From Elusimicrobiota bacterium (GTDB taxonomy: Bacteria; CG03; SLGR01; JAGXOG01): 17,194 nt of DNA. Positions 898 through 13,233 of the stretch are shown here, piece by piece. The stretch covers positions 1 to 17,194 of the forward strand of contig JBNJDT010000033.1 of the NCBI GenBank assembly GCA_051745145.1, read 5' to 3'. The notes beneath the pieces were generated by a model. It worked only from the letters and a program-made list of their open reading frames with translations, did not search any database and was not told where the DNA came from. The translations under genes were made by a program, and so were the position numbers. Numbering within the stretch: the stretch's first letter is position 1; every line of letters begins with the position of its first letter.

Positions 898-926
898 TTG
901 ACTATAAATTAATTTATTAGTATAAA
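898..926 (+). promoter_or_regulatory. Putative sigma70-type promoter for the BMC operon
   Basis: TTGACT (898-903), a 17-nt spacer, then TATAAA (921-926), in the gap ahead of the first operon gene. Each hexamer is one mismatch from consensus. The spacer holds a perfect 14-bp palindrome, ATAAATTAATTTAT (904-917). Confidence 0.7.
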
Positions 927-937
927 TTATAACTAAA

Positions 938-1840
938 GTGAAAATATTAAGAAATGAAGACATTTTGGCCTCAAAGAAAAGAGGTAAGAGAAGGATAAGA
1001 GTACCTGAAAGTACAATGGTAACCCCCCTGGCAAAAGAGACCGCCGGGCGGTTTGGAATAGAGATAATTACGGAGGATATTATGAGAAAACCCTATATTG
1101 CCGGCAACTGGAAAATGAATAAGACAAATAAGGAAGCGGTGCAGATGGTTCAGGAATTTAAAAATTTGGTTAGTGATGTTGAAGAAGTGGATATGATGAT
1201 TGCTCCCCCCTATACGGCATTACCCGTACTTAATGAAGTGTTAAAAGATTCTAATATTATGCTGGGGGCCCAGAATATGCACCAGGAGACCAGCGGGGCG
1301 TATACCGGAGAAATATCCCCGGATATGTTAAAAGATACCGGCTGCGGATGGGTCATACTCGGACATTCCGAAAGAAGAGAATATTTCGGGTGTACCGACG
1401 AGCTGGTAAATAAAAAGTTAAAAGTAGCTATGGATAAAGATTTAAAACCGATAATTTGTCTTGGCGAAAAGCTTGAACAAAGAGAAGCAGGGAAGGCTTT
1501 TGATGTAATAAAAGGCCAGCTGGATATTGCTCTGAAAGATATTACTGCCGAGCACGCATCTAGTTTAACTATCGCCTATGAACCGGTGTGGGCAATAGGG
1601 ACCGGTAAAACTGCTACTCCCGAGCAGGCCAACGAAGTTCATGAATTTATAAGGGAAAATTTGAGCGAAAAATTTGGTCCCGAAATAGGTAGCGGGATAA
1701 GAATTCTTTACGGGGGCAGCGTAAAACCTTATAATGTAAAAGAGTTGATGCAGGAAGAAAATATCGACGGTGGACTGATAGGTGGAGCCAGTCTGGAAGC
1801 GGAATCGTTTTCAAAGATAGTAAAATTTAAAAATCAATGA
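938..1840 (+). CDS. tpiA: Triosephosphate isomerase with a 48-aa N-terminal extension; alternative internal start at 1082
   Basis: TPI motifs AGNWKMN, GAYTGEIS, ILGHSERR, AYEPVWAIGTG, LYGGSVK and GGLIGGASL. The long form starts at GTG 938. The TPI core starts at in-frame ATG 1082, preceded by GGAGG at 1072-1076. Confidence 0.95.
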   Translation: MKILRNEDILASKKRGKRRIRVPESTMVTPLAKETAGRFGIEIITEDIMRKPYIAGNWKMNKTNKEAVQMVQEFKNLVSDVEEVDMMIAPPYTALPVLNEVLKDSNIMLGAQNMHQETSGAYTGEISPDMLKDTGCGWVILGHSERREYFGCTDELVNKKLKVAMDKDLKPIICLGEKLEQREAGKAFDVIKGQLDIALKDITAEHASSLTIAYEPVWAIGTGKTATPEQANEVHEFIRENLSEKFGPEIGSGIRILYGGSVKPYNVKELMQEENIDGGLIGGASLEAESFSKIVKFKNQ

Positions 1841-2485: not shown

Positions 2486-2779
2486 ATGGATAAAGCTTTA
2501 GGAATGATAGAGACCAAAGGATTAGTGGGTATGATAGAAGCCGGCGATGCTATGGTCAAAGCCGCTGATGTTCGCCTGGTAGGGTATGAAAAGATAGGAT
2601 ATGGTTATGTCACGGTATTAGTCAGAGGGGAAGTGGCAGCCTGCCGGGCCGCCTGCGAGGCAGGGAGTATGGCCGCTCAGAAAGTCGGGGAGCTGGTTTC
2701 TGTCCATGTAATACCGCGGCCCCATGAAGATTTAGAGGGTAAATTGCCTATTACCCGCGAATTTTTTAATAATGAATAA
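2486..2779 (+). CDS. BMC-H hexameric shell protein (EutM/PduA-like)
   Basis: ALGMIETKG...[12 protein letters not shown]...[16 protein letters not shown]...[14 protein letters not shown] ribosome-binding site upstream. Confidence 0.95.
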
Positions 2780-3080
2780 AATGGAAAGAGAAGCACTGGG
2801 TATGGTGGAGACCCGGGGGCTTGTAGGCAGTATAGAAGCCGGTGATGTTATGGTAAAGACCGCTAGAGTGGAGCTGGTTAAATATGAAAAAACGGGAAAC
2901 GGGATTGTGACTGTATTGATACGGGGGCCGGTGGCAGATTGCCGGGCTGCAGTGGATGCGGCTTCAGCGGCAGTTGAAAAAATAGGAGAATTATTAAGTG
3001 CCCATGTAATACCATTTCCCTATGAAGATCTTGAAGACAGTTTACCGATAAATATAGAAAATATAAAAAAAAGAGGATAA
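2772..3080 (+). CDS. BMC-H hexameric shell protein, divergent paralog
   Basis: ALGMVETRG...[11 protein letters not shown]...[11 protein letters not shown]...HVIPFP. The start could be ATG 2772 or ATG 2781; both abut the upstream stop codon. Confidence 0.93.
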
Positions 3081-3083
3081 AAA

Positions 3084-3380
3084 ATGCAGTTTGGAAAAAT
3101 TACAGGTAATGTAGTTTGCACTACAAAAGACAGTAAAATAAAAGGCAGAAAATTAATGCTGGTTCAGCCGGTTGACGATAATCTTGACCCGGCCGGTACT
3201 CCCCTGGTGGGTCTGGATTCGGTGGGAGCAGGAGAAGGTGAGCTGGTGCTGTATGTAACGGGCTCATCATCCAGAATGACCGATATCACCGAAGACCGTC
3301 CGGTGGACTGTACTATAATGGCTATTGTAGATTATGTGGAAAAAGAGGGCCAGCTTATATTTGAAAAGCACAAGGAATAG
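3084..3380 (+). CDS. BMC-P pentameric vertex protein (EutN/CcmL family) no. 1
   Basis: G.ITGNVVCTTK...G.KLMLVQP...DSVGAGEGELVL.VTGSSSR...PVDCTIMAIVD. Confidence 0.94.
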   Translation: MQFGKITGNVVCTTKDSKIKGRKLMLVQPVDDNLDPAGTPLVGLDSVGAGEGELVLYVTGSSSRMTDITEDRPVDCTIMAIVDYVEKEGQLIFEKHKE

Positions 3381-3427
3381 AATCTAACCAAAATATCAAA
3401 CAAATTTAAGATATCGGAGGATATAAA

Positions 3428-4855
3428 ATGGATATTGATAAGCAACAAGTATCAAAAATTGTAAGAGAAGTGGTCAGTAAAATTGAGCAGGGTGACAGCC
3501 CGGCAGTATCTTCAATTTCCAGCGCCGGCTCTTCATATCTTTTTGATACTATGGAAAGGGCCATAAGTAAGGCAAAAGAAGCCCAGGCCCGGTTTGCGGA
3601 TATGGGACTGAAACTCAGAAGAAAAGTTATCTCTGAAATGCGCAAAGCTGCAAGAGAAAATGCCGAGTCCCTGGCCCGGTCCGCCCGTGATGAAACGGGA
3701 ATGGGACGGTATCCGGATAAGATAAAGAAAAATATGCTGGGTGCGGATAAAACTCCGGGGGTGGAAGACCTAAGCCCGGTTACCTATACCGGCGATGACG
3801 GAATGACTTTGGTAGAGAAAGCTCCTTTTGGGGTCATAGGGGCGGTAACTCCTTCAACTAATCCCACATCCACGGTAATAAATAATTCTATAAGTATTCT
3901 GGCGGCGGGGAACGCTGTGGTATTTGCCCCCCATCCGGCAGCTAAAAAATGTTCCCAGGAAGCAATTAATATTTTAAACGAAGCGGTTGTAAAAGCCGGT
4001 GGACCCGGGGGACTGATAACAGCTATGTCCGAACCTACCTTGGAAGGGGCCCAGGTACTGTTTTCTCATCCGGATATAAGAGTTTTACTGGTTACCGGAG
4101 GCCCTGCTGTTGTGGCCAAGGCCATGGAAAGTAATAAAAAAGTTATAGCGGCCGGGCCGGGAAATCCCCCGGCGGTTATTGACAGCACTGCGGATATTGA
4201 CCGGGCGGTGGATTCAATTATTAAGGGGGGAAGCTTTGACAACGGGATTCTGTGCACCGCGGAAAAAGAAGTTCTGGCAACCGACCGGGCGGCGGGGGCG
4301 GTTATTGACAGATTCAGGAGTGATTCCAGAATTTACGAATTAGATTCTCAGCAGATGGACCGCCTGGCGGATATTGTTATAGAAGAATCCGGCAAAGGAG
4401 GTTGCGAGGGGGCCATGAACCGGGAGTATGTGGGAAAAAATGCTTCCTATATAGCCCAGGCTATAGGACTTGATATCCCCCGGGATACAAGGTTTTTGTG
4501 GGGAGAAGTGGATAAAAACCATGATTTAATGTGGACCGAACAGCTTATGCCCGTTATGCCGGTGGCCAGAACGGGCAATATCCAGCAGACTATAGATCTG
4601 GCCGTAGAAATGGAGGGGGGAAACGGACATACGGCTATAATGCATTCTCTTAACGTGGAAAATCTGACTAAAATGGCCCGCAAAGCGGCCTGTTCCATAT
4701 TTGTTAAAAACGGACCTTCTTATATGGGGCTGGGCATGGGCCAGGGATATGCAACTATGTCCATTGCCACTCCCACAGGAGACGGTCTGGTCAAGGCCTC
4801 TCACTTTACCCGGCCGTTAAGATGTGTGTTAGTGGATAATTTCAGGATAGCATAA
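3428..4855 (+). CDS. CoA-acylating aldehyde dehydrogenase (EutE/PduP family) with N-terminal encapsulation peptide
   Basis: PFGVIGAVTPSTNP, PHP.A, VTGGP.VV, AGPGNPP, catalytic Cys in FDNGILCTAEK, EQLMP, HTAIMHS, IFVKNGPS and IATPTGDG. The N-terminal helix DKQQVSKIVREVVSKIE is followed by a Ser-rich linker. GGAGG ribosome-binding site upstream. Confidence 0.95.
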   Translation: MDIDKQQVSKIVREVVSKIEQGDSPAVSSISSAGSSYLFDTMERAISKAKEAQARFADMGLKLRRKVISEMRKAARENAESLARSARDETGMGRYPDKIKKNMLGADKTPGVEDLSPVTYTGDDGMTLVEKAPFGVIGAVTPSTNPTSTVINNSISILAAGNAVVFAPHPAAKKCSQEAINILNEAVVKAGGPGGLITAMSEPTLEGAQVLFSHPDIRVLLVTGGPAVVAKAMESNKKVIAAGPGNPPAVIDSTADIDRAVDSIIKGGSFDNGILCTAEKEVLATDRAAGAVIDRFRSDSRIYELDSQQMDRLADIVIEESGKGGCEGAMNREYVGKNASYIAQAIGLDIPRDTRFLWGEVDKNHDLMWTEQLMPVMPVARTGNIQQTIDLAVEMEGGNGHTAIMHSLNVENLTKMARKAACSIFVKNGPSYMGLGMGQGYATMSIATPTGDGLVKASHFTRPLRCVLVDNFRIA

Positions 4856-6181
4856 ATGAAAAAAGAAGAAATTTTACGAAAAGTTAAATCGGCCGGGGTA
4901 GTTGGCGCCGGAGGAGCGGGTTTCCCGTCTTATGCTAAAATTTCGGCAGATGCCGATGTTGTAATAGCTAACGGTGCGGAATGCGAACCGCTTCTGGCTA
5001 CGGATAAATTTTTAATGGAAAAGCACGCCCGGGAAATTGTGGAGGGACTAAGGTTAATAAAGCAGACCACCGGAGCTAATGAGCTGTATATAGCATTAAA
5101 AGCAAAGTATAAAAAAGCGGTTGCCAGTTTTAATAAAATACTGGGAACCAGTTCGGATATAGAGTTGTATAAACTTGATAATTACTATCCGGCCGGAGAT
5201 GAATTTGAACTGGTATACGATATAACCGGTAAATCAATTCCCGAAAGCGGACTGCCCCTGGATGTGGGGGCGGTAGTTACTAATGTAAATACCATTTTAA
5301 ACGTAAAAAGAGCGTTTACCGATGATAAACCGGTGACCACCAGGTGGGTAACGGTAGCCGGCGCCCTGGAAACTCCATATATGGCTGAAGTTCCGGTGGG
5401 GATAACTGCCGGGGAACTGATCCGGGCCGGAAAGCCAAAGGTCGAGGATTATGTTATAGTAGGCGGCGGTCCGATGACCGGGAGCATAGTTGACGAAGAC
5501 TATCTTATAGATAAAAGAGACGGGGGAATACTGGTATTACCCGAAGATAATCCGGCAGCTGTTAAGAAGAGCCGTACTATCCAATCTAATGAAAAGAGGG
5601 GCAAGTCCATGTGCGATCAGTGCTTTGACTGCTCTATTGTCTGTCCTAGAAACTTACTGGGGCACGATCTTTCCCCTCATAAAATGATGAGAAATTTATT
5701 TATAGCTCCGGAAAATTCTTCCGTGCATCTTACTAATGCATATCTATGCTGTGAATGCGGGTTATGTGATATGTTTGCCTGTCCTCTGGATCTTTCCCCC
5801 CGGGAAATGTTAGTGCAGGCCCGGGATACACTTCAAAAAGAAGGGGTGGAAAACCCCCATAACAACAAAAACCTTGAAGTACATCCGGAGAGAGATTTTA
5901 GAAGGGTAAATACCGATCGTTTAGTTAAAAGAATAGGATTGGATAAGTATGAAGGGCAGAAACTGGCAGTAAAAACTGTAAAAACAGATAAGGTTAAAAT
6001 ATCTCTTGCCCAGCATATAGGTGCTCCATCTGAGCCGGTCATCAGCAAGGGAGATAAAGTAAGCAGCGGGGATATAATAGCCAAAATACCGGAAGATACT
6101 CTGGGAGCTACGGTTCATGCCAGTATAGACGGAAAGATAACTAATATTACCGATAACAGTATTAATATAGCGGGAGGATGA
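4856..6181 (+). CDS. pduS: PduS-like (RnfC-related) NADH/FMN Fe-S oxidoreductase
   Basis: AGVVGAGGAGFP, NGAECEPLL..D, YPAGDE and GGPMTG motifs; two ferredoxin motifs (CDQCFDCSIVCP, CCECGLCDMFACP); C-terminal QHIGAP...VHASIDG. It starts immediately after the aldehyde dehydrogenase stop and is followed by a PduT-like gene. Confidence 0.92.
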   Translation: MKKEEILRKVKSAGVVGAGGAGFPSYAKISADADVVIANGAECEPLLATDKFLMEKHAREIVEGLRLIKQTTGANELYIALKAKYKKAVASFNKILGTSSDIELYKLDNYYPAGDEFELVYDITGKSIPESGLPLDVGAVVTNVNTILNVKRAFTDDKPVTTRWVTVAGALETPYMAEVPVGITAGELIRAGKPKVEDYVIVGGGPMTGSIVDEDYLIDKRDGGILVLPEDNPAAVKKSRTIQSNEKRGKSMCDQCFDCSIVCPRNLLGHDLSPHKMMRNLFIAPENSSVHLTNAYLCCECGLCDMFACPLDLSPREMLVQARDTLQKEGVENPHNNKNLEVHPERDFRRVNTDRLVKRIGLDKYEGQKLAVKTVKTDKVKISLAQHIGAPSEPVISKGDKVSSGDIIAKIPEDTLGATVHASIDGKITNITDNSINIAGG

Positions 6182-6191
6182 GAGAAAAAAT

Positions 6192-6740
6192 ATGAAAAAT
6201 GCCATAGGTTTAATTGAACTTTGCAGTATAGCAAAAGGATTTGAGGTAACAGACAGTTTATTAAAGACGGCGGGCAGCGAACTGGTCGAATCTCATTCGG
6301 TCTGTCCGGGAAAATTCATTGTTCTTATAACCGGCCGGACAGCGGATGTGGAAAGCTCACTGGATGCCGGGCTGGAGCTGGCCGAAGATGCTTTTGTGGA
6401 TAAACTTATGATTCCCAATATACACAGCCAGCTTGTTCCCGCTATACGGGGGATGAGTGATGTAACCGAGCTGGAATCCCTGGGAATAATAGAGACCTTT
6501 TCGGCGGCCTCCTCTATAATAGCGGCCGATGCCGCTGCCAAAAAGGCCAACATAGATTTAATAGATGTCCGTCTGGCCAATGCCCTGGGGGGAAAGGCTT
6601 ATGTTACACTAACCGGGGAAGTGGGAGCGGTCCGCTCCTCTGTAAATGCGGGTTGTATGTCTATTAAAGAGGAAGGAATTTTAGTCCGGCGGGTAGTAAT
6701 TCCAAGACCCCACAAAGATATGGCCCGGAGCGTTTTATAA
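6192..6740 (+). CDS. pduT: BMC-T tandem-domain shell protein, PduT-like
   Basis: Two BMC domains (AIGLIEL.SIAKG...D..LK; SLGIIETFS...AADAAAK...GGKAY...GEVGAV...VIPRPH). The pore Cys motif VCPGK, which ligates the 4Fe-4S cluster in PduT, is present. Confidence 0.92.
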   Translation: MKNAIGLIELCSIAKGFEVTDSLLKTAGSELVESHSVCPGKFIVLITGRTADVESSLDAGLELAEDAFVDKLMIPNIHSQLVPAIRGMSDVTELESLGIIETFSAASSIIAADAAAKKANIDLIDVRLANALGGKAYVTLTGEVGAVRSSVNAGCMSIKEEGILVRRVVIPRPHKDMARSVL

Positions 6741-6766
6741 TATGTCTACAAAGGAGATAAATTAGT

Positions 6767-7219
6767 ATGAATGAAATAGTGGTCGGATCGGATCACGGCG
6801 GCTTTGCCCTTAAAGAGGATTTAAAAGATTATCTTCAGGATAACGGGTACAATGTTGTGGATTTTGGCACTTATTCGGAAGAGTCGTGTGACTATCCCGA
6901 TTACGCCCAGCTTGTTGCACAGTCGATATCCAGGGGGGAGTACGAGAGGGGGATTCTGGTTGACGGTACGGGGGGAGGAGTTTGCCTTACGGCCAATAAG
7001 GTCAAAGGAGTGAGGGCGGTAACGGCCTATAACAGGTTGACCGGGGGATATGCCGCAGAGCACGATGACTGTAATGTTTTATGTCTTGGCGGTAAAATGC
7101 TGGGGCCTCTTTTAGCCAGAGATATAGTGGATGAATGGTTAAAAACACCTTTTGGCGGGGGAAGGCACGCCCGGAGGCTGAATAAAATCAAAGATATAGA
7201 GGATAAGTACTACAAATGA
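6767..7219 (+). CDS. RpiB/LacAB-family sugar-phosphate isomerase, Asp-type (no catalytic Cys)
   Basis: GSDHGGF.LK, DYPDYA, ANKVKGVRA and F.GGRH.RR motifs. The active-site loop reads VDGTGGG rather than CGTGIG, and HDD replaces HNN/HND. Confidence 0.9.
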   Translation: MNEIVVGSDHGGFALKEDLKDYLQDNGYNVVDFGTYSEESCDYPDYAQLVAQSISRGEYERGILVDGTGGGVCLTANKVKGVRAVTAYNRLTGGYAAEHDDCNVLCLGGKMLGPLLARDIVDEWLKTPFGGGRHARRLNKIKDIEDKYYK

Positions 7220-7665
7220 GGATAATAATAGGCTCCGATCACCGGGGTTTTAAGTTAAAGAAAGAATTAAGCGAATATCTTTCGGCAAAAGATTATGATA
7301 TCACCGATGTCGGACCACCGGATGAAGAATCGGTGGATTATCCGGAATACGCCCGGGAAGTGGGCCGGAAGGTTACCCGGGGCGCGGGGGATTTTGGTAT
7401 AGCCATATGCGGCAGCGGGGTAGGAATATGTATAGCGGTAAATAAAGTTCGGGGGATCAGGGCGGGTACGGCCAGGGAAGTTAGTGATGCAAAGATGATG
7501 AGAAAGCATAACAATGCCAATGTTCTGTGTATAGGGGCCGATGAAACAGATACCGGAACCGCTAAAGAGATGGTGGATGAATTTTTAACTACGGATTTTG
7601 ACGGGGGAAGACATAAAAGAAGAGTGAATTTAATAAAAAGGATGGAACAGGATGAAAGCCGCTAA
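7216..7665 (+). CDS. rpiB: Ribose-5-phosphate isomerase B-like, canonical Cys-type
   Basis: GSDH.GF.LK, DYPEYA, ICGSGVG, NKVRGIRA, HNNANVLC and FDGGRH.RR motifs. ATGA overlap with the preceding paralog. Confidence 0.9.
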   Translation: MRIIIGSDHRGFKLKKELSEYLSAKDYDITDVGPPDEESVDYPEYAREVGRKVTRGAGDFGIAICGSGVGICIAVNKVRGIRAGTAREVSDAKMMRKHNNANVLCIGADETDTGTAKEMVDEFLTTDFDGGRHKRRVNLIKRMEQDESR

Positions 7666-7957
7666 AGTAATAGGCCGGGTAGTGGCCACCCGAAAATATA
7701 AAACTATGAAAGGTAAAAAAATTCTCATGTTAAAACCCATGAGCTGGGAGGAAGTTGAGGAAGCTTACAAAAACAACCGGGAAGACGAAGTTAAAGATAA
7801 AGGGAAATCCATCCTGGCTCTTGATGCCGTGGGGGCGGGGGCTTCTGAGTATGTATTTTACGTTTCCTCCAGAGAAGCCTGCCACGCATTTGATGATTAT
7901 GCCATATGTAACCATGCGGTAGTGGGTATAATTGACGGGCTAGATATAAACCAATGA
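7652..7957 (+). CDS. BMC-P pentameric vertex protein no. 2, with a charged insertion
   Basis: AKVIGRVVATRK...GKKIL...ALDAVGAG..E.VFYVSSREA...AVVGIID. Overlaps both neighbouring genes. Confidence 0.9.
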   Translation: MKAAKVIGRVVATRKYKTMKGKKILMLKPMSWEEVEEAYKNNREDEVKDKGKSILALDAVGAGASEYVFYVSSREACHAFDDYAICNHAVVGIIDGLDINQ

Positions 7958-8250
7958 TTATCGGAAAAGTAATCGGTAATGTCTGGGCCACCCGTAAGCA
8001 TTCCGCTCTTACCGGAAAAAAATTATTACTGGTAAAACCGGTGGATGAGATATCCGGCGAACCAAACGGGGAAACTCAAATGGCAGTTGACCAGAGTATT
8101 GACGCCGGGCCCGGTGATACGGTCCTGGTTCTGGACGAGGGTTCTTCCTGCCGGCAGATTTTAGGTTATGAACAGGCCCCAACCCGGACAATAGTTGTGG
8201 GGGTTGTGGATAATGTTTACAGAGAAGGTAAATTTAAAAAATATCATTAA
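7954..8250 (+). CDS. BMC-P pentameric vertex protein no. 3
   Basis: GKVIGNVWATRKH..L.GKKLLLVKP...AVD..IDAGPGDTVLV..EGSS.R...IVVGVVD. ATGA overlap with the previous gene. Confidence 0.92.
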   Translation: MIIGKVIGNVWATRKHSALTGKKLLLVKPVDEISGEPNGETQMAVDQSIDAGPGDTVLVLDEGSSCRQILGYEQAPTRTIVVGVVDNVYREGKFKKYH

Positions 8251-8307
8251 AGAATAAGTTTTTAATATTATTATAAAAGTTAGACTGACAGAATAAGGAG
8301 GAAAAAA

Positions 8308-9732
8308 GTGGAAGAAAGTTTAATTCAGAAAATAACAAATGAGACAATGAACAGGATAAAAAGTGACAAAGGCGGTAAACGGGAGATACTGCTGATTTTT
8401 ATGGGGGGAGATCGGGAAGTGGATACTGCCCTAAACCAGATTAAGTGTTTAAAGGAGCTGGGGGCCCGCATGTCTGCTTATCTTACCGGGGCAGCCCATA
8501 AAATTATAGGCAGACAGAAAGTACTCCAGAGCGGCGTGGATAGAATTATAGAGGATAAGGATATATGGGACCGGTCACTTTTAGACCGTATAGACGGAAT
8601 AATAGTCCCCGTACTTACAATGAACGGAGCGTCGAAAATATCCAATATGGTAGCGGATAATCCCGCGTCCAATATAATATTGCTGGCCCTGCGGCATGAG
8701 AAGAAAATCTTAATGGCCAGGGATTCAATTATCTGCTGCGGCGGTCCCGAGCCCAAGGCCACGTCATTTTTTATGAGGCAGGTTAACCAGATGGTAAATA
8801 CCATTAAAAATCTGGGGGCAACTGTAACGGTGGCCAAAAATCTGGCCCAGCGAGCTACCGAGCTTTTTAATATGGACAGTAAAGTTAGAACAGTCTCAAA
8901 TTCTTCAACCTCATCATCGGGATTAAATAATAATTTACCCTGCGGGGGAGATGTGGAGGCCTGCGCAGAATGCGGACTGTGTGTAGTTAACAGGGAAGAT
9001 GAAGTAAGAGATATTGTAAATGCCGGAGCTTCAAGAATTTCCGCCAAACAGTTGGGAAATAATGTGGCTCAGGATATAGCCGGGCTGATAGACCACACCG
9101 ACCTCAATGCTGATTCTACCGATAAAGAGATAGGAGAGTTATGCGAGGAGGCGAAAAAATATAATTTTGCTACGGTATGTGTCAATCCCACAAACGTTAA
9201 ATTAGCCAGCCAGCTTTTAAAAGGAACCGATGTAGGGGTGACTACGGTAATAGGTTTCCCCTTGGGGGCTACGACACCTACGGTAAAAGCTATTGAAGCC
9301 AGGGATGCTATTGCTAACGGGGCAGATGAGATCGATATGGTTATGAACGTCGGAGCCCTAAAGAGCGGTAATTACCAGCTGGTAGAAGATGATATTAAAG
9401 CAGTCCGGGAGGCGACCCAGGGAAAAATTCTGAAAGTTATACTGGAAACTGCATTACTGGATGAAGATCAGATAAGAAAGGCCAGTCAGCTGGCCAAATC
9501 CGCGGGAGCGGATTTTGTAAAGACTTCTACCGGGTTTGGTCCGGGAGGAGCAAAAGAAGAAGATATAAGTGTTATGCGCGAAACCGTCGGAGAATCCATG
9601 GGAGTTAAAGCTTCCGGGGGAATTCATTCCAAGGAAGAAGCTCAGGGAATGGTGGACGCCGGCGCATCCCGGATAGGGGCATCGGCTTCGGTGGCCATAG
9701 TTACCGGCGGTGAGTCGGACAGCGCATATTAA
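8308..9732 (+). CDS. deoC: Deoxyribose-phosphate aldolase with N-terminal encapsulation peptide, flavoprotein-like domain and Cys-rich linker
   Basis: The C-terminal ~220 aa are Deo[35 protein letters not shown], Schiff-base Lys in [15 protein letters not shown] and GASRIGAS. The N-terminal ~250 aa are extra. GTG start with AAGGAGG at 8295-8301. Confidence 0.93.
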
Positions 9733-9766
9733 AAAAAGGATAGATAAAGATAAGGAGGAATAAAAA

Positions 9767-10063
9767 ATGGCAGAATCAAAACTTGCCTTAGGTATGATTG
9801 AGACGATAGGTTTAGTAGGTATGATAGAGGCATCAGATGCCATGGTAAAAGCGGCAAAAGTAGAACTGGCCGGATACGAAAAGATAGGACAAGGCTATGT
9901 TACAACCATGGTAAGAGGTGAAGTCGGCGCTGTAAGGGCTGCCGTAGAATCCGGTTCTCAAGCTGCTCAAAAAGTTGGGGAATTAGTCAGTGTTCACGTT
10001 ATACCTAGACCGCATGGCGATCTGGAGAGAATTATACCTCAAGATAATAACGAAAAAAAATAA
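9767..10063 (+). CDS. BMC-H hexameric shell protein (EutM/PduA-like), possibly the major shell protein
   Basis: ALGMIET.G...[11 protein letters not shown]...[20 protein letters not shown]...SVHVIPRPH. Strong TAAGGAGG ribosome-binding site. Confidence 0.95.
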
Positions 10064-10150: not shown

Positions 10151-10435
10151 ATGAGAAAGATTATTGCCGATACAGTAGTGGATATAATAACAGAGAGTCA
10201 AATTTCTTCCCGATCCGAAGAAGAAGATGATTTTAAGAGAGGACCTCTGTTAGAAAAAGAGTATATAAAAAGCCGGACAACTTTTAAAAATAAGAAACCG
10301 TTAATTACTAAGGATGTTATAGAAAATAAGATTAACGAAGGGATAAAAAATTTAAAAGTTCCATCCAATGCTGTAGTTACTCCGTTAGCCCGCATGCTTA
10401 TAGAAGAGGGCAGGATAAATATTATTGAAGAATAA
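10151..10435 (+). CDS. Small BMC-associated hypothetical protein with a C-terminal 'IT..D...VTPLAR' module
   Basis: The C-terminal half (PLITKDVI...LKVPSNAVVTPLARMLIEEGRINII) resembles the TPI N-terminal extension and the EutQ N-terminal domain. The N-terminus is an amphipathic helix. No clear Shine-Dalgarno, so the start is uncertain. Confidence 0.7.
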   Translation: MRKIIADTVVDIITESQISSRSEEEDDFKRGPLLEKEYIKSRTTFKNKKPLITKDVIENKINEGIKNLKVPSNAVVTPLARMLIEEGRINIIEE

Positions 10436-11100: not shown

Positions 11101-13233
11101 ATGAAGCTAGATAACTATAAATTAAAACATACGCCCAGTCCTAAAGACAAAAACAGGTATAAATTAAGCCTGGGGGGAACTGAAAAAGAGGTAAAAAAAT
11201 TAGTAAATAAACTGGGCAATGTAAGCAGCCGTCCTTTTCCCGCCTCTGAAGAAAAATTTGAGTGGTCGCTATTTTTATATGATACTGATAAAAAATTCAG
11301 AAAAAAACTCAAAAAAAAATTAGATAAAATTGTAAAGTCCAAAAAAACAAAAGAGAAGTCCCGGCAAAAAAAAGATAAAAAGGAAGAACAAAATAAAAAA
11401 GAGGATACCTCTAATATTAAGCCGGCTGAAAAGAAAAGTAAAGAAAAAGAACCTGTAAGTAATCTTTCCTCCCATACCACATTAAAGGAAAACTATGTTT
11501 TTGATAATTTTATAGTGGGGACGAATACCCGGTTTACTTATGCGGCCTGTAAAGCTGTAGCAGAAAATCCGGGGGAAAATTATAATCCCCTGTTTATCTA
11601 CGGGGGTGTGGGGCTTGGAAAAACTCATCTAATGCAATCAATCGGTAATTATGTAAAACAAAATTTCCCGGATTACATGATAGTATATATTTCAACGGGG
11701 AAATTTATAGAGGAAGTAATAAATGCTATTGAAAAAGGGACTATAAACGAGTTGCGCAATCGATACAAGGATGTAGATCTTCTTTTAATTGACGACATAC
11801 AGTTTTTAGAAAAGTCGGAATCAACCCAGGAGGAATTTTTTCATATTTTTAATGATATGCATGATGTTAAAAAGCAGATTGTTATTACTTCCGATAAACC
11901 TCCAAAAAAGTTAACAACTCTGGAAGAACGTTTGAAATCCCGCTTTGAATGGGGTTTAACGACAGATGTAAAGTCCCCGAATTTCGAGACCCGGAAAGCA
12001 ATATTAAAGAGAAAGGCTACTAAGGCAGGTTTGGAATTGACGGAAGATATAAGTAATTATATTGCTGAAAGATTAACTTCCAACATAAGGGAACTGGAGG
12101 GAATTATTAATAGAATTGTGGCCTATAAAAATATTTCGGATGAGAATATGAATCTTGATTTAGTTAAAGATATAATAAGCAATATTTTACCCGGCGAACC
12201 TGAAGAGGAAGAAAAATCTGATACCCAGCAGACGCCGGCCGACGATACGCCCCCGCCGCCGGGAGGTGAGGGTTCGTATTCGCAGCAGACCCCTTCTTCG
12301 GTTCAGCAGCCCCAGCCCCAGCCTCAAGCTCAACCTCAATATTCCGCGCCCCAGCCATCGCCCCAGCAATCAGGTAAAATTTGTTCCAGATGTGGAAGTC
12401 CCCAAATAAGTTTTGTCCCTCAATATCAAAGATGGTATTGTGGAAGTTGTGGAATGTATGTCGAACCAAGTGTGCCAAACTGGCAATCATCCGGTCAGCC
12501 GGGTACCGGTAATTTTCCGCCCCCTCCCCCCCAGCATCAGCACCAGCCCCAGCCCCAGCAGCAACAGCCTCCACCACCTAATCAACAGGGTGGGGAAAAG
12601 AAATGTCCCACGTGCAGTAGTAATTTAGAATATATTTCTAAGTATGACAGGTATTATTGTAGAAATTGCGGCAAATATACCCAGCCGCAATCAGCTCAAT
12701 CCAGTCAAAACGTACCCCCGCCGCCTCAGTCGGAAGATAAGGCTCAGATTAAAACTCAGCAGGATGATACTGCGTCTGAGGATACAGAAAGCGGGGAGGA
12801 GCAAGAAGAAGCGTTTCGCCAGAAAATAATAGGCACAAAGAAATCTGATGTGAGGGAAATAAAAGCAGGTTACATATTGCCGGAAGGATCGCAACAGCTT
12901 TTTTCAGAAATTGTGGACAAATTGCATAAGCTGGCCCGCCAGAAAAAGATAAATTTTTATATACAGCCTGTATTTACCCATTTTTATTCTCCGGAGGTAA
13001 ATATAAATTACGATAAATTGGTTCATCTGGCAATTAACAATAAAGTCGATATTGCACTTTCCATGGAGCCGGGGGGGAATTTTGCAGTTGCCGATAATTT
13101 TAAAAGTGAAATTACTGCTAAAATGGAAGAAAAAGATATGCCCCTGGAAGTTTTGCCCCGTGAACCGATAAAAGACAGTTTTGCTTTAAATATAATGCTG
13201 GATATAGCAATTTGCGCTAAGAAAAATAAATAA
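11101..13233 (+). CDS. DnaA-like AAA+ ATPase lacking domain IV, with Pro/Gln linkers, two Zn-ribbons and novel N- and C-terminal domains
   Basis: Residues ~128-362 match DnaA domain III: Y.FDNFIVG..N, YNPLFIYGGVGLGKTHL (Walker A), LLLIDDIQF (Walker B), QEEFFH.FN, ITSD.PP, RLKSRFEWGL and NIRELEG. No RDHTTV-type helix-turn-helix follows. Confidence 0.88.
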   Translation: MKLDNYKLKHTPSPKDKNRYKLSLGGTEKEVKKLVNKLGNVSSRPFPASEEKFEWSLFLYDTDKKFRKKLKKKLDKIVKSKKTKEKSRQKKDKKEEQNKKEDTSNIKPAEKKSKEKEPVSNLSSHTTLKENYVFDNFIVGTNTRFTYAACKAVAENPGENYNPLFIYGGVGLGKTHLMQSIGNYVKQNFPDYMIVYISTGKFIEEVINAIEKGTINELRNRYKDVDLLLIDDIQFLEKSESTQEEFFHIFNDMHDVKKQIVITSDKPPKKLTTLEERLKSRFEWGLTTDVKSPNFETRKAILKRKATKAGLELTEDISNYIAERLTSNIRELEGIINRIVAYKNISDENMNLDLVKDIISNILPGEPEEEEKSDTQQTPADDTPPPPGGEGSYSQQTPSSVQQPQPQPQAQPQYSAPQPSPQQSGKICSRCGSPQISFVPQYQRWYCGSCGMYVEPSVPNWQSSGQPGTGNFPPPPPQHQHQPQPQQQQPPPPNQQGGEKKCPTCSSNLEYISKYDRYYCRNCGKYTQPQSAQSSQNVPPPPQSEDKAQIKTQQDDTASEDTESGEEQEEAFRQKIIGTKKSDVREIKAGYILPEGSQQLFSEIVDKLHKLARQKKINFYIQPVFTHFYSPEVNINYDKLVHLAINNKVDIALSMEPGGNFAVADNFKSEITAKMEEKDMPLEVLPREPIKDSFALNIMLDIAICAKKNK
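12226..12726 (+). repeat. Coding low-complexity Pro/Gln tracts alternating with a duplicated Zn-ribbon unit
   Basis: CAGCCC-type hexamer iterations near 12304-12336 and 12532-12570 encode (QP)n. The two units are CSRCGSPQISFVPQYQRWYCGSCGMY (12382-12459) and CPTCSSNLEYISKYDRYYCRNCGKY (12604-12678). Confidence 0.85.

Follow-up and report, generated by a model that had tools for sequence, protein, structure and literature searches.

The window analysed here is a stretch of 17,194 nucleotides from a bacterium of the phylum Elusimicrobiota (contig JBNJDT010000033.1 of assembly GCA_051745145.1). It holds a bacterial microcompartment (BMC) operon of the sugar-phosphate (SPU) type, and the first gene of this operon encodes triosephosphate isomerase (TPI). 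Comparison with related genomes supports the interpretation of an initial annotation that this one gene may give two isoforms. The single tpiA at the head of the operon probably has two in-frame starts that are used on one mRNA, giving a long form that docks to the microcompartment and a short form that remains in the cytosol; the probability of this reading is about 0.68. The features of the start region are as follows.

898–903, + strand: −35-like hexamer TTGACT, read in the sequence; TTGACT, TTGACA or TTGATT lies at equal distance in 17 of 18 orthologous loci
921–926, + strand: −10-like hexamer TATAAA, with a spacer of 17 nt to the −35-like hexamer; 11 nt ahead of GTG 938
938–940, + strand: GTG, putative start of the long form (300 amino acids), without a Shine-Dalgarno (SD) sequence; in exact alignment with ATG in 16 orthologues and with GTG in a related genome (G001)
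938–1081, + strand: 48 codons for a predicted docking module, an alpha/beta domain resembling the N-terminus of EutQ, and a 4-residue hinge
1072–1076, + strand: internal SD sequence GGAGG within the codons ACG GAG GAT, with a spacer of 5 nt to ATG 1082
1082–1084, + strand: in-frame ATG (Met49), putative start of the short form (252 amino acids)
1082–1840, + strand: TPI core (TIM barrel) including the stop codon; PF00121, E 2.3e-99

In the proposed mechanism, a sigma-70-like promoter would end 11 nt before GTG 938 (5–6 nt before the ATG in most relatives), and, since the promoter ends just ahead of the long-form start, the mRNA would be leaderless or nearly so. Ribosomes starting at the 5′ end of the mRNA in the leaderless manner would make the 300-residue form, the first 45 residues of which are predicted to fold as a EutQ-type module; this module would dock TPI to the microcompartment, at its shell or its core. 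The GGAGG at 1072–1076 would recruit other ribosomes, which would start at ATG 1082 and make a 252-residue TPI for glycolysis in the cytosol. The TPI inside the compartment would convert glyceraldehyde 3-phosphate released by the aldolase, as has been proposed for SPU compartments (PMC11585597). We infer the synthesis of both products, their ratio and localisation, the binding of the module to the shell, and the division of labour between the two forms. The odds are about even that, in a lineage of bacteria with small genomes, the ratio of long to short form is set by the relative strength of leaderless and SD-led initiation, with the single TPI shared between organelle and cytosol. TPI is a dimer, so long and short chains could mix, and short chains could enter the compartment as partners in such mixed dimers. 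To assign the long form to the organelle and the short form to the cytosol may therefore be too clean a division.

Start signals of the tpiA gene

The reading frame that begins at GTG 938 is open up to the stop codon at 1838–1840 and comprises 300 codons, or 252 when counted from ATG 1082. The nearest in-frame stop codon upstream of GTG 938 is TAA at 923–925, which makes GTG 938 the first common start codon of the frame. The calculated energy of the duplex with the anti-SD sequence is +0.9 kcal/mol at GTG 938 and −9.5 kcal/mol at ATG 1082. The value at ATG 1082 beats those of all 284 other in-frame positions of the TPI gene, and its SD sequence is among the strongest of the 21 starts in the window, on a par with the best starts in the operon. 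The gene therefore contains, as the initial annotation had described, a first start without an SD sequence and an internal in-frame ATG with an SD sequence of its own at working distance (GGAGG, 5 nt, ATG). The GGAGG run requires both ACG and GAG, codons that account for 18% of the threonine and 28% of the glutamate codons in the genes of the window. The database record of the protein (P0003) is 252 residues long; the gene caller chose ATG 1082. Among the records of 120 listed relatives, only four are approximately 300 residues long, and the long form is missing from databases because gene callers take the SD-led internal start.

The −10 box at 921–926, which had been noted ahead of GTG 938, is accompanied by TTGACT at 898–903, and in a looser promoter scan the pair scores five plus five of 12 matches. 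The consensus scan of the plus strand between 938 and 1082 lists no internal promoter that could give rise to a short transcript. The geometry of the promoter predicts a leader of approximately 3–6 nt, and thus a transcript that is leaderless or nearly so at GTG 938. In the whole genome to which the window belongs (G000), an ATG or GTG with an open frame of 80 codons or more lies 3–12 nt behind 10 of the 123 strong promoter-like sites. This count hints that leaderless genes are common in this organism, where they may be nothing out of the ordinary.

An RNA element in the 5′ region was considered and rejected. The predicted fold of positions 933–1110 is no better than that of shuffled sequences (z −0.12), and a match to Rfam is at the level of chance (E 0.65; 15 bits against a gathering score of 55).

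Start signals were compared among 18 loci with the extension; the locus of genome G013 was left out, its junction between extension and core being unassembled. The fusion and the internal start, the conservation of which had been suggested as a check, are kept in all 18 loci. The internal codon is always ATG, and the energy of the internal SD sequence ranges from −8.0 to −11.8 kcal/mol, within the top 0–4.6% of in-frame positions of each gene. The residues of the linker vary: TEDI, REENN, MEGF, NGGQL, TEEL, REDI, RRRI, SGGAS, TGGKS, KGGKQ, and KKEKK. The SD sequence is carried by codons for Glu-Asp or Glu-Glu (GAG GAN), Glu-Gly, Gly-Gly (GGA GGN), Arg-Arg (AGG AGG), or Lys-Glu (AAG GAG), in differing phases. 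It is thus the nucleotide run that is kept and not the peptide.

At the aligned start of the long form, 16 loci have ATG, whereas G000 and G001 have GTG. This start lacks an SD sequence (energy of −3.0 kcal/mol or weaker) in 17 of the 18 loci, the exception being locus L015, where AGAGGA precedes the long-form start with an energy of −5.8 kcal/mol. A promoter-like pair of hexamers lies ahead of the long-form start in 17 loci, with a gap of 5 nt in eight of them, 6 nt in five, 11 nt in three (the window, G001, and G008), and 3 nt in one. A promoter test, in which at least nine of 12 positions had to match, with at least five of six in the first hexamer, and the pair had to end 3–13 nt before the anchor, was passed at 15 of 18 orthologous long-form starts and at 21 of 4,932 internal in-frame control anchors. 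By this comparison of sequences, the promoter-like pair at the long-form starts is more than a chance occurrence.

The extension is coding sequence under purifying selection, as judged from codon comparisons. The ratio of nonsynonymous to synonymous substitution rates (dN/dS) of the extension is 0.06–0.62 in the 10 of 12 pairs for which dS could be estimated, and the length differences among extensions are whole codons. In-frame stop codons are present 0–4 codons ahead of the aligned start in nine of the first 12 loci examined. Between G000 and G001, dS is 0.21 in the extension (window 938–1081 against 1501–1644 of locus L003) and 1.84 in the core, a difference of about ninefold. The two genomes are 73–93% identical from the −35 hexamer onward; at the upstream edge of this hexamer, identity drops from 73–85% to 30%. 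The low dS together with the high identity points to an added constraint at the level of DNA or RNA, rather than to decay. The fold of positions 933–1110, compared with shuffled sequences, gave no RNA structure that would account for the low dS.

Two contigs from RNA libraries of other samples (study P1) cover positions 947–1864 and 1013–1291 and bridge position 1082 without insertion or deletion. The longer contig differs from the window at 10 positions, of which the only one inside the extension is synonymous (1028 C>T). Such contigs may derive from DNA, and they serve here as a check of the frame and not as evidence of transcription or of the 5′ end. In four metatranscriptome runs no RNA-library contig extends over 849–946, and one match begins at 947; these matches were not used as evidence. 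The alternative raised in the initial annotation, that a sequence error or the recent loss of a stop codon joined two genes, is ruled out by the presence of the fusion in six GTDB families of the phylum and by the contigs that cross 1082 without an indel.

The N-terminal module and its distribution

The core of the protein is a complete TPI: residues 52–297 match positions 1–244 of the 245 positions of the PF00121 profile with 332 bits against a cut-off of 20.1. The catalytic residues K59 (in NWK), H143 (in GHSERR), and E215 (in YEPVWAIGTG) are invariant in 11 as well as in 17 aligned sequences. The genome of 1.8 Mb, which is 92.6% complete, contains a single match to the TIM family, this gene, and so the search for another tpiA that had been suggested earlier yielded none. 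All 19 genomes with the extension have one TPI gene each, the two matches in G013 being the two halves of the gene on separate contigs. Among the other enzymes of G000 are a class II fructose-bisphosphate aldolase, two phosphofructokinases, GAPDH, and PGK. Triose phosphates thus arise in the cytosol, and a TPI that reaches the cytosol is needed. The contig with pgk in G000 stops 105 nt past this gene, which leaves room for doubt about a hidden tpi. No tpi follows pgk in G001, G010, G015, and G019, which have other genes there; the downstream DNA is readable in these four genomes only, that of G004 being too short.

The distribution of the extension was studied in 41 genomes, G000 and 40 relatives, of which 40 have a TPI. 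Matches over all 300 residues were found in 18 genomes, including G007, in which the extension is interrupted; the nineteenth is G013, with the extension at the end of one contig and the core at the start of another. All 19 genomes with the extension have matches to the shell domain PF00936; of the 17 genomes that lack a PF00936 match, not one has the extension intact. BMC matches without an extension occur in five genomes (G006, G009, G034, G038, and G025). The TPI of G034 and G038 lies elsewhere than the BMC locus, and no TPI was found in G025, the completeness of which is 63%. G011 has no BMC match and retains a decayed remnant of the extension.

In the loci of G009 and G006 (L012 and L013), TPI lies behind a GGDEF gene as it does in the window, and the gap of approximately 150 nt contains stop-ridden traces that, by eye, resemble a decayed module.

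The genome G007 is informative about the internal start. Only a BMC-domain fragment of 23 positions is left in it, and tpi, pduL, and rpiB lie side by side (locus L006, G007:C68). The extension is interrupted by a TGA at codon 13 and no longer has the invariant proline, whereas the internal SD sequence, the ATG, and the entire TPI core are intact. This genome is 97% complete and has one TPI. Because of the stop codon inside the extension, the internal start must be the working one. As read from its sequence, G007 is a natural knock-out of the extension, in which the internal start can suffice alone.

The search beyond the phylum used a degenerate DNA pattern (module motif, gap, and N-terminus of TPI) over genome contigs. 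Of the 102 stretches found, 80 were retrieved. Each of these contains a TPI core, but only eight have the module upstream in frame. Seven of the eight are labelled Elusimicrobia or Elusimicrobiota and one Candidatus Sumerlaeota, and at least two repeat loci already counted. No independent lineage with the fusion was gained from these 80 of 102 stretches with this narrow pattern.

The initial annotation had taken the 48 open codons to encode a recognisable module, and the structure prediction bears this out. AlphaFold2, supplied with an alignment of 18 sequences, predicts a compact domain with the order strand-helix-strand-strand-helix-strand and a pLDDT (predicted local distance difference test) of 91. 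In the model of the full-length protein the module precedes the barrel, and hinge residues 47–49, located exactly at the internal start, have pLDDT values below 50. The module is conserved over its whole length, with D8, I9, P30, A32, and E34 invariant across 17 long forms, and the hinge has four residues in the window. According to the published definition, an encapsulation peptide consists of one amphipathic helix, longer than 10 residues, that an unstructured and poorly conserved linker connects to the enzyme (PMC11585597, Table S2 legend). The extension is not a canonical peptide of this kind, as it has two helices and four strands, is confidently predicted and conserved throughout, and is followed by a hinge of four residues.

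The relatives of the module were sought by profile and structure searches. The 48 residues alone match no Pfam family even at E 10. A Foldseek search of the module model against the PDB returned nothing at E≤0.001; the best matches, parts of eIF5B at E 0.25–0.5, were taken as generic similarity among small alpha/beta domains. The profile of the module matches 300 proteins at E≤0.001 among 1.84 billion. A Pfam scan of 110 of the best 150 profile matches found as partners EutQ (14), PTAC (8), RpiB (6), Flavoprotein (3), Ldh (2), and class II aldolase (1). The module occupies residues 3–47 of the EutQ-family proteins in six of six checked, the C-terminus of PTAC proteins in two of two checked, and either end of RpiB proteins.

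Residues 3–47 of EutQ from E. coli K-12 match the module profile with E 4.5e-7 among 16 Eut proteins (19.7 bits). The N-terminal region of Salmonella EutQ binds the EutL/EutM interface, and EutQ residues 1–99 target GFP to the compartment; the part of EutQ that matches the module binds the shell and is required for the integration of EutQ into the BMC (PMC12487888). The extension is a putative docking module of the type of the EutQ N-terminus (H1/H2) and may bind the shell. The two-helix layout is common to EutQ H1/H2 and the TPI module, in addition to the similarity of profiles. In contrast to EutQ, the TPI module is fused through a 4-residue hinge, and the flexible region, the cargo-binding helices H3/H4, and the cupin domain of EutQ are absent. 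In E. coli K-12 (L157), residues 22–42 of EutT are weakly similar to the later half of the profile (E 0.0019 among 16 proteins).

Two further families show faint likeness. Seven of 18 modules match positions 113–152 of the 153 positions of PDU_like (PF15953), at best with E 0.0098 and 16.3 bits against a cut-off of 27; the module of the window gives no match, and the cut-off is reached nowhere in the 41 genomes. The E3-binding domain PF02817 is matched by one of 18 modules at E 0.11 and, at E≤0.001, by four of the 110 module-bearing proteins scanned, and E2 chains in the PDB match weakly at E ~1.3 over 18 residues. The likeness to the E2 domain, a weak one, lies in the motif (V/I)(T/S)P-x-A-(K/R)-E/x-A-x-x-x-G-I-(E/D) of the second helix of the module. 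Only about 18 residues are alike, the match is not significant for the TPI of the window, and the order of the elements differs.

Alternative explanations

It is unlikely that the long form is the sole product. In that case the GGAGG and ATG inside the gene would be leftovers of an unfused tpiA or have a role other than initiation, for example as a translational pause giving the module time to fold, and undocked long form would cover the needs of the cytosol. The fusion does descend from a normal SD-led tpiA, short-form relatives carry the same SD sequence, and docking need not be complete. However, the core dS is saturated between lineages and the linker has changed often, yet the strong SD sequence and the ATG of Met49 persist in every locus. 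A pause site needs no ATG 5–9 nt downstream, and in G007, the extension of which has a stop, the internal start must work. The opposite explanation, that the short form alone matters in this genus, with GTG 938 barely translated and the extension decaying as in G007, G006 and G009, and G011, is very improbable. Against this, the frame is open in both species of the genus, and both retain D8, I9, P30, A32, and E34 and a near-identical promoter. The dS of the extension, far below that of the core, is the opposite of relaxed constraint, and the strain variant in the RNA library has one change in the extension, which is synonymous. The signs that point towards such decay are that GTG replaces ATG solely in G000 and G001, that the −10 hexamer lies 11 nt from the start instead of 5–6 nt, that the gene caller picked the short form, and that the highest dN/dS of the extension, 0.62, belongs to the pair of the window and G001.

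It is also quite improbable that two forms are made and the module does something other than place TPI inside the organelle, such as tethering it to the outer face of the shell, to other cargo, or to a 94-residue protein encoded in the same operon, or acting in regulation. The module is a folded domain, unlike the canonical encapsulation peptides, and the weak likeness that it bears to the 2-oxoacid dehydrogenase E2 domain for E3 binding hints at a fold for protein docking in general. Placement inside the organelle is favoured by the co-occurrence of the module with shell genes and its decay where these are nearly gone, by its relatives on PduL, RpiB, and EutQ-family proteins, and by the shell binding of the matching EutQ region, which is needed for BMC integration (PMC12487888).

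Several observations weigh against a docked long form and a cytosolic short form made from one mRNA. The consensus promoter scan of the window does not list the pair at 898–926, as it demands T at the sixth place, where TATAAA has A. By E. coli standards, a GTG start behind a predicted leader of approximately 3–6 nt, as in the window and G001, makes a poor site of initiation, and the dN/dS of 0.62 for this pair counts on the same side. The basis for shell binding is a weak likeness to EutQ (19.7 bits) and a PDU_like match below threshold (16 against 27 bits). In G006 and G009, TPI heads the BMC locus with only debris upstream and no extension, which indicates that the long form is dispensable for some BMCs. 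The retention of the SD sequence and the ATG could partly reflect inheritance from the unfused ancestor. Finally, the relatives share kinship, and the counts overstate their independence.

Operon context and comparison with known systems

The genes that accompany tpiA in the operon, and a second copy of the module, are located as follows.

1837–2457, + strand: pduL (PTAC), the ATG of which overlaps the TPI stop codon (ATGA); without an SD sequence, energy +0.7 kcal/mol
2486–10063, + strand: rest of the SPU-type BMC operon, with three BMC-H, one BMC-T, three EutN, AldDH, PduS-like, two RpiB, and a Flavoprotein-like+DeoC aldolase gene
10298–10432, + strand: second copy of the module, the last 45 residues at the C-terminus of a 94-residue protein (open reading frame 10151–10435)

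The GGDEF gene upstream of TPI ends at 861. The overlap of the pduL start with the TPI stop codon indicates that pduL is co-transcribed with TPI and probably translationally coupled to it. It is followed by two BMC-H genes, EutN, aldehyde dehydrogenase (Aldedh, 3428–4855), a PduS-like gene, a BMC-T gene with tandem domains, two RpiB genes, two EutN genes, a DeoC-type aldolase with a Flavoprotein-like N-terminal half (DeoC, 8308–9732), a BMC-H gene, the 94-residue open reading frame without a family, and an FTCD_C-like gene. The BMC domains are at 2486, 2772, 6192 (tandem), and 9767, and the EutN domains at 3084, 7652, and 7954. A DeoC-family aldolase, an aldehyde dehydrogenase, BMC-H, BMC-T, and three BMC-P genes thus lie in one locus, as is characteristic of SPU loci. 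The PTAC, the PduS-like gene, and the two RpiB genes match the description of SPU1, SPU4, and SPU7 (PMC11585597).

The 94-residue protein is a candidate small adaptor between shell and cargo. Its open reading frame has no Pfam family and no SD sequence, its end is overlapped by the following FTCD_C-like gene, and its first ~18 residues resemble, by eye, the amphipathic helix of an encapsulation peptide. The N-terminal half fused to the DeoC-type aldolase, approximately 250 residues with a weak Flavoprotein match, begins with GTG behind a strong SD sequence; free-standing proteins of ~260 residues elsewhere join a Flavoprotein-like part to a C-terminal docking module (P0141). Just after the BMC genes, positions 11101–13233 encode a protein of 710 residues with a DnaA-type ATPase domain and a weak match to a FYVE-like zinc finger, without an SD sequence. 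Outside the window, three PF00936 domains are present in one open frame of 317 residues (G000 contig C4:25876-26715), apart from the main locus. The same arrangement occurs in G001, G002, G003, G004, G008, G009, G010, G013, and G017; to our knowledge, a shell protein with three BMC domains is unusual.

Genes that give two forms through alternative starts are known from several systems. PduB and PduB′ are made from two in-frame starts, with and without an N-terminal part, PduB being a shell protein. The yeast genes HTS1 and VAS1 achieve dual targeting by alternative in-frame starts, with two sets of transcripts and a mitochondrial presequence. The TPI described here resembles these cases in its two starts, from which one form would have an N-terminal part for targeting or binding and the other would lack it. 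For the short form of CcmM, translation starts internally, behind a separate ribosome-binding site. CcmM of beta-carboxysomes is made from one gene as a full-length form and an N-terminally truncated form (CcmM58 and CcmM35), the balance of which matters, and CsoS2 of carboxysomes has two forms produced by a frameshift (PMC13370225). However, CcmM acts as a scaffold, and its two forms both work inside the carboxysome, whereas TPI is a housekeeping enzyme, the short form of which would lack the docking part and the long form of which would be started without an SD sequence at the 5′ end of the mRNA or close to it.

SPU loci frequently include a TPI gene (PMC11585597, Commun Biol 2024), and in that study the TPI of SPU4 has a predicted N-terminal helical peptide, that of SPU7 a tail, and that of SPU1 no extension (Table S2). 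The SPU4 extension is of the type of a helix on a disordered linker, whereas the extension here is a folded domain. In rows 2–32 of the locus table of PMC11585597, all Elusimicrobia genomes are filed as SPU1, including the organism of locus L114; the TPI of L114 carries the module, though SPU1 TPI is listed there as extension-less. The same study states that automatic annotation misses N-terminal extensions on SPU enzymes. The canonical encapsulation peptides of PduP, PduD, EutC, and EutE and the TPI extension are alike in being N-terminal additions that are absent from non-BMC homologues and presumed to direct cargo. They differ in that the peptides are single helices of ~18 residues with variable linkers, whereas the TPI extension is a conserved domain of ~45 residues. 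BMC genes with two forms and extensions on SPU enzymes are known already. For TPI, a search of open-access papers and preprints found no report of isoforms, of internal starts, or of a module of the EutQ type, and the word 'isoform' has 0 occurrences in PMC11585597.

In the usual view of microcompartments, a cargo enzyme is a dedicated paralogue with a helical encapsulation peptide. The locus described here suggests that an essential enzyme of central metabolism may serve the organelle and the cytosol from one gene. If the proposed mechanism is correct, the ratio of the two forms could shift under conditions that favour leaderless translation. The folded EutQ-type module of ~45 residues may be a portable docking domain, present on TPI, PduL, RpiB, LDH-like, and aldolase proteins, and, if so, it would offer a new kind of targeting tag for engineered compartments. 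TPI would be the first housekeeping enzyme found to be divided in this way between a bacterial organelle and the cytosol, a prokaryotic counterpart of the dual targeting of enzymes to mitochondria and cytosol.

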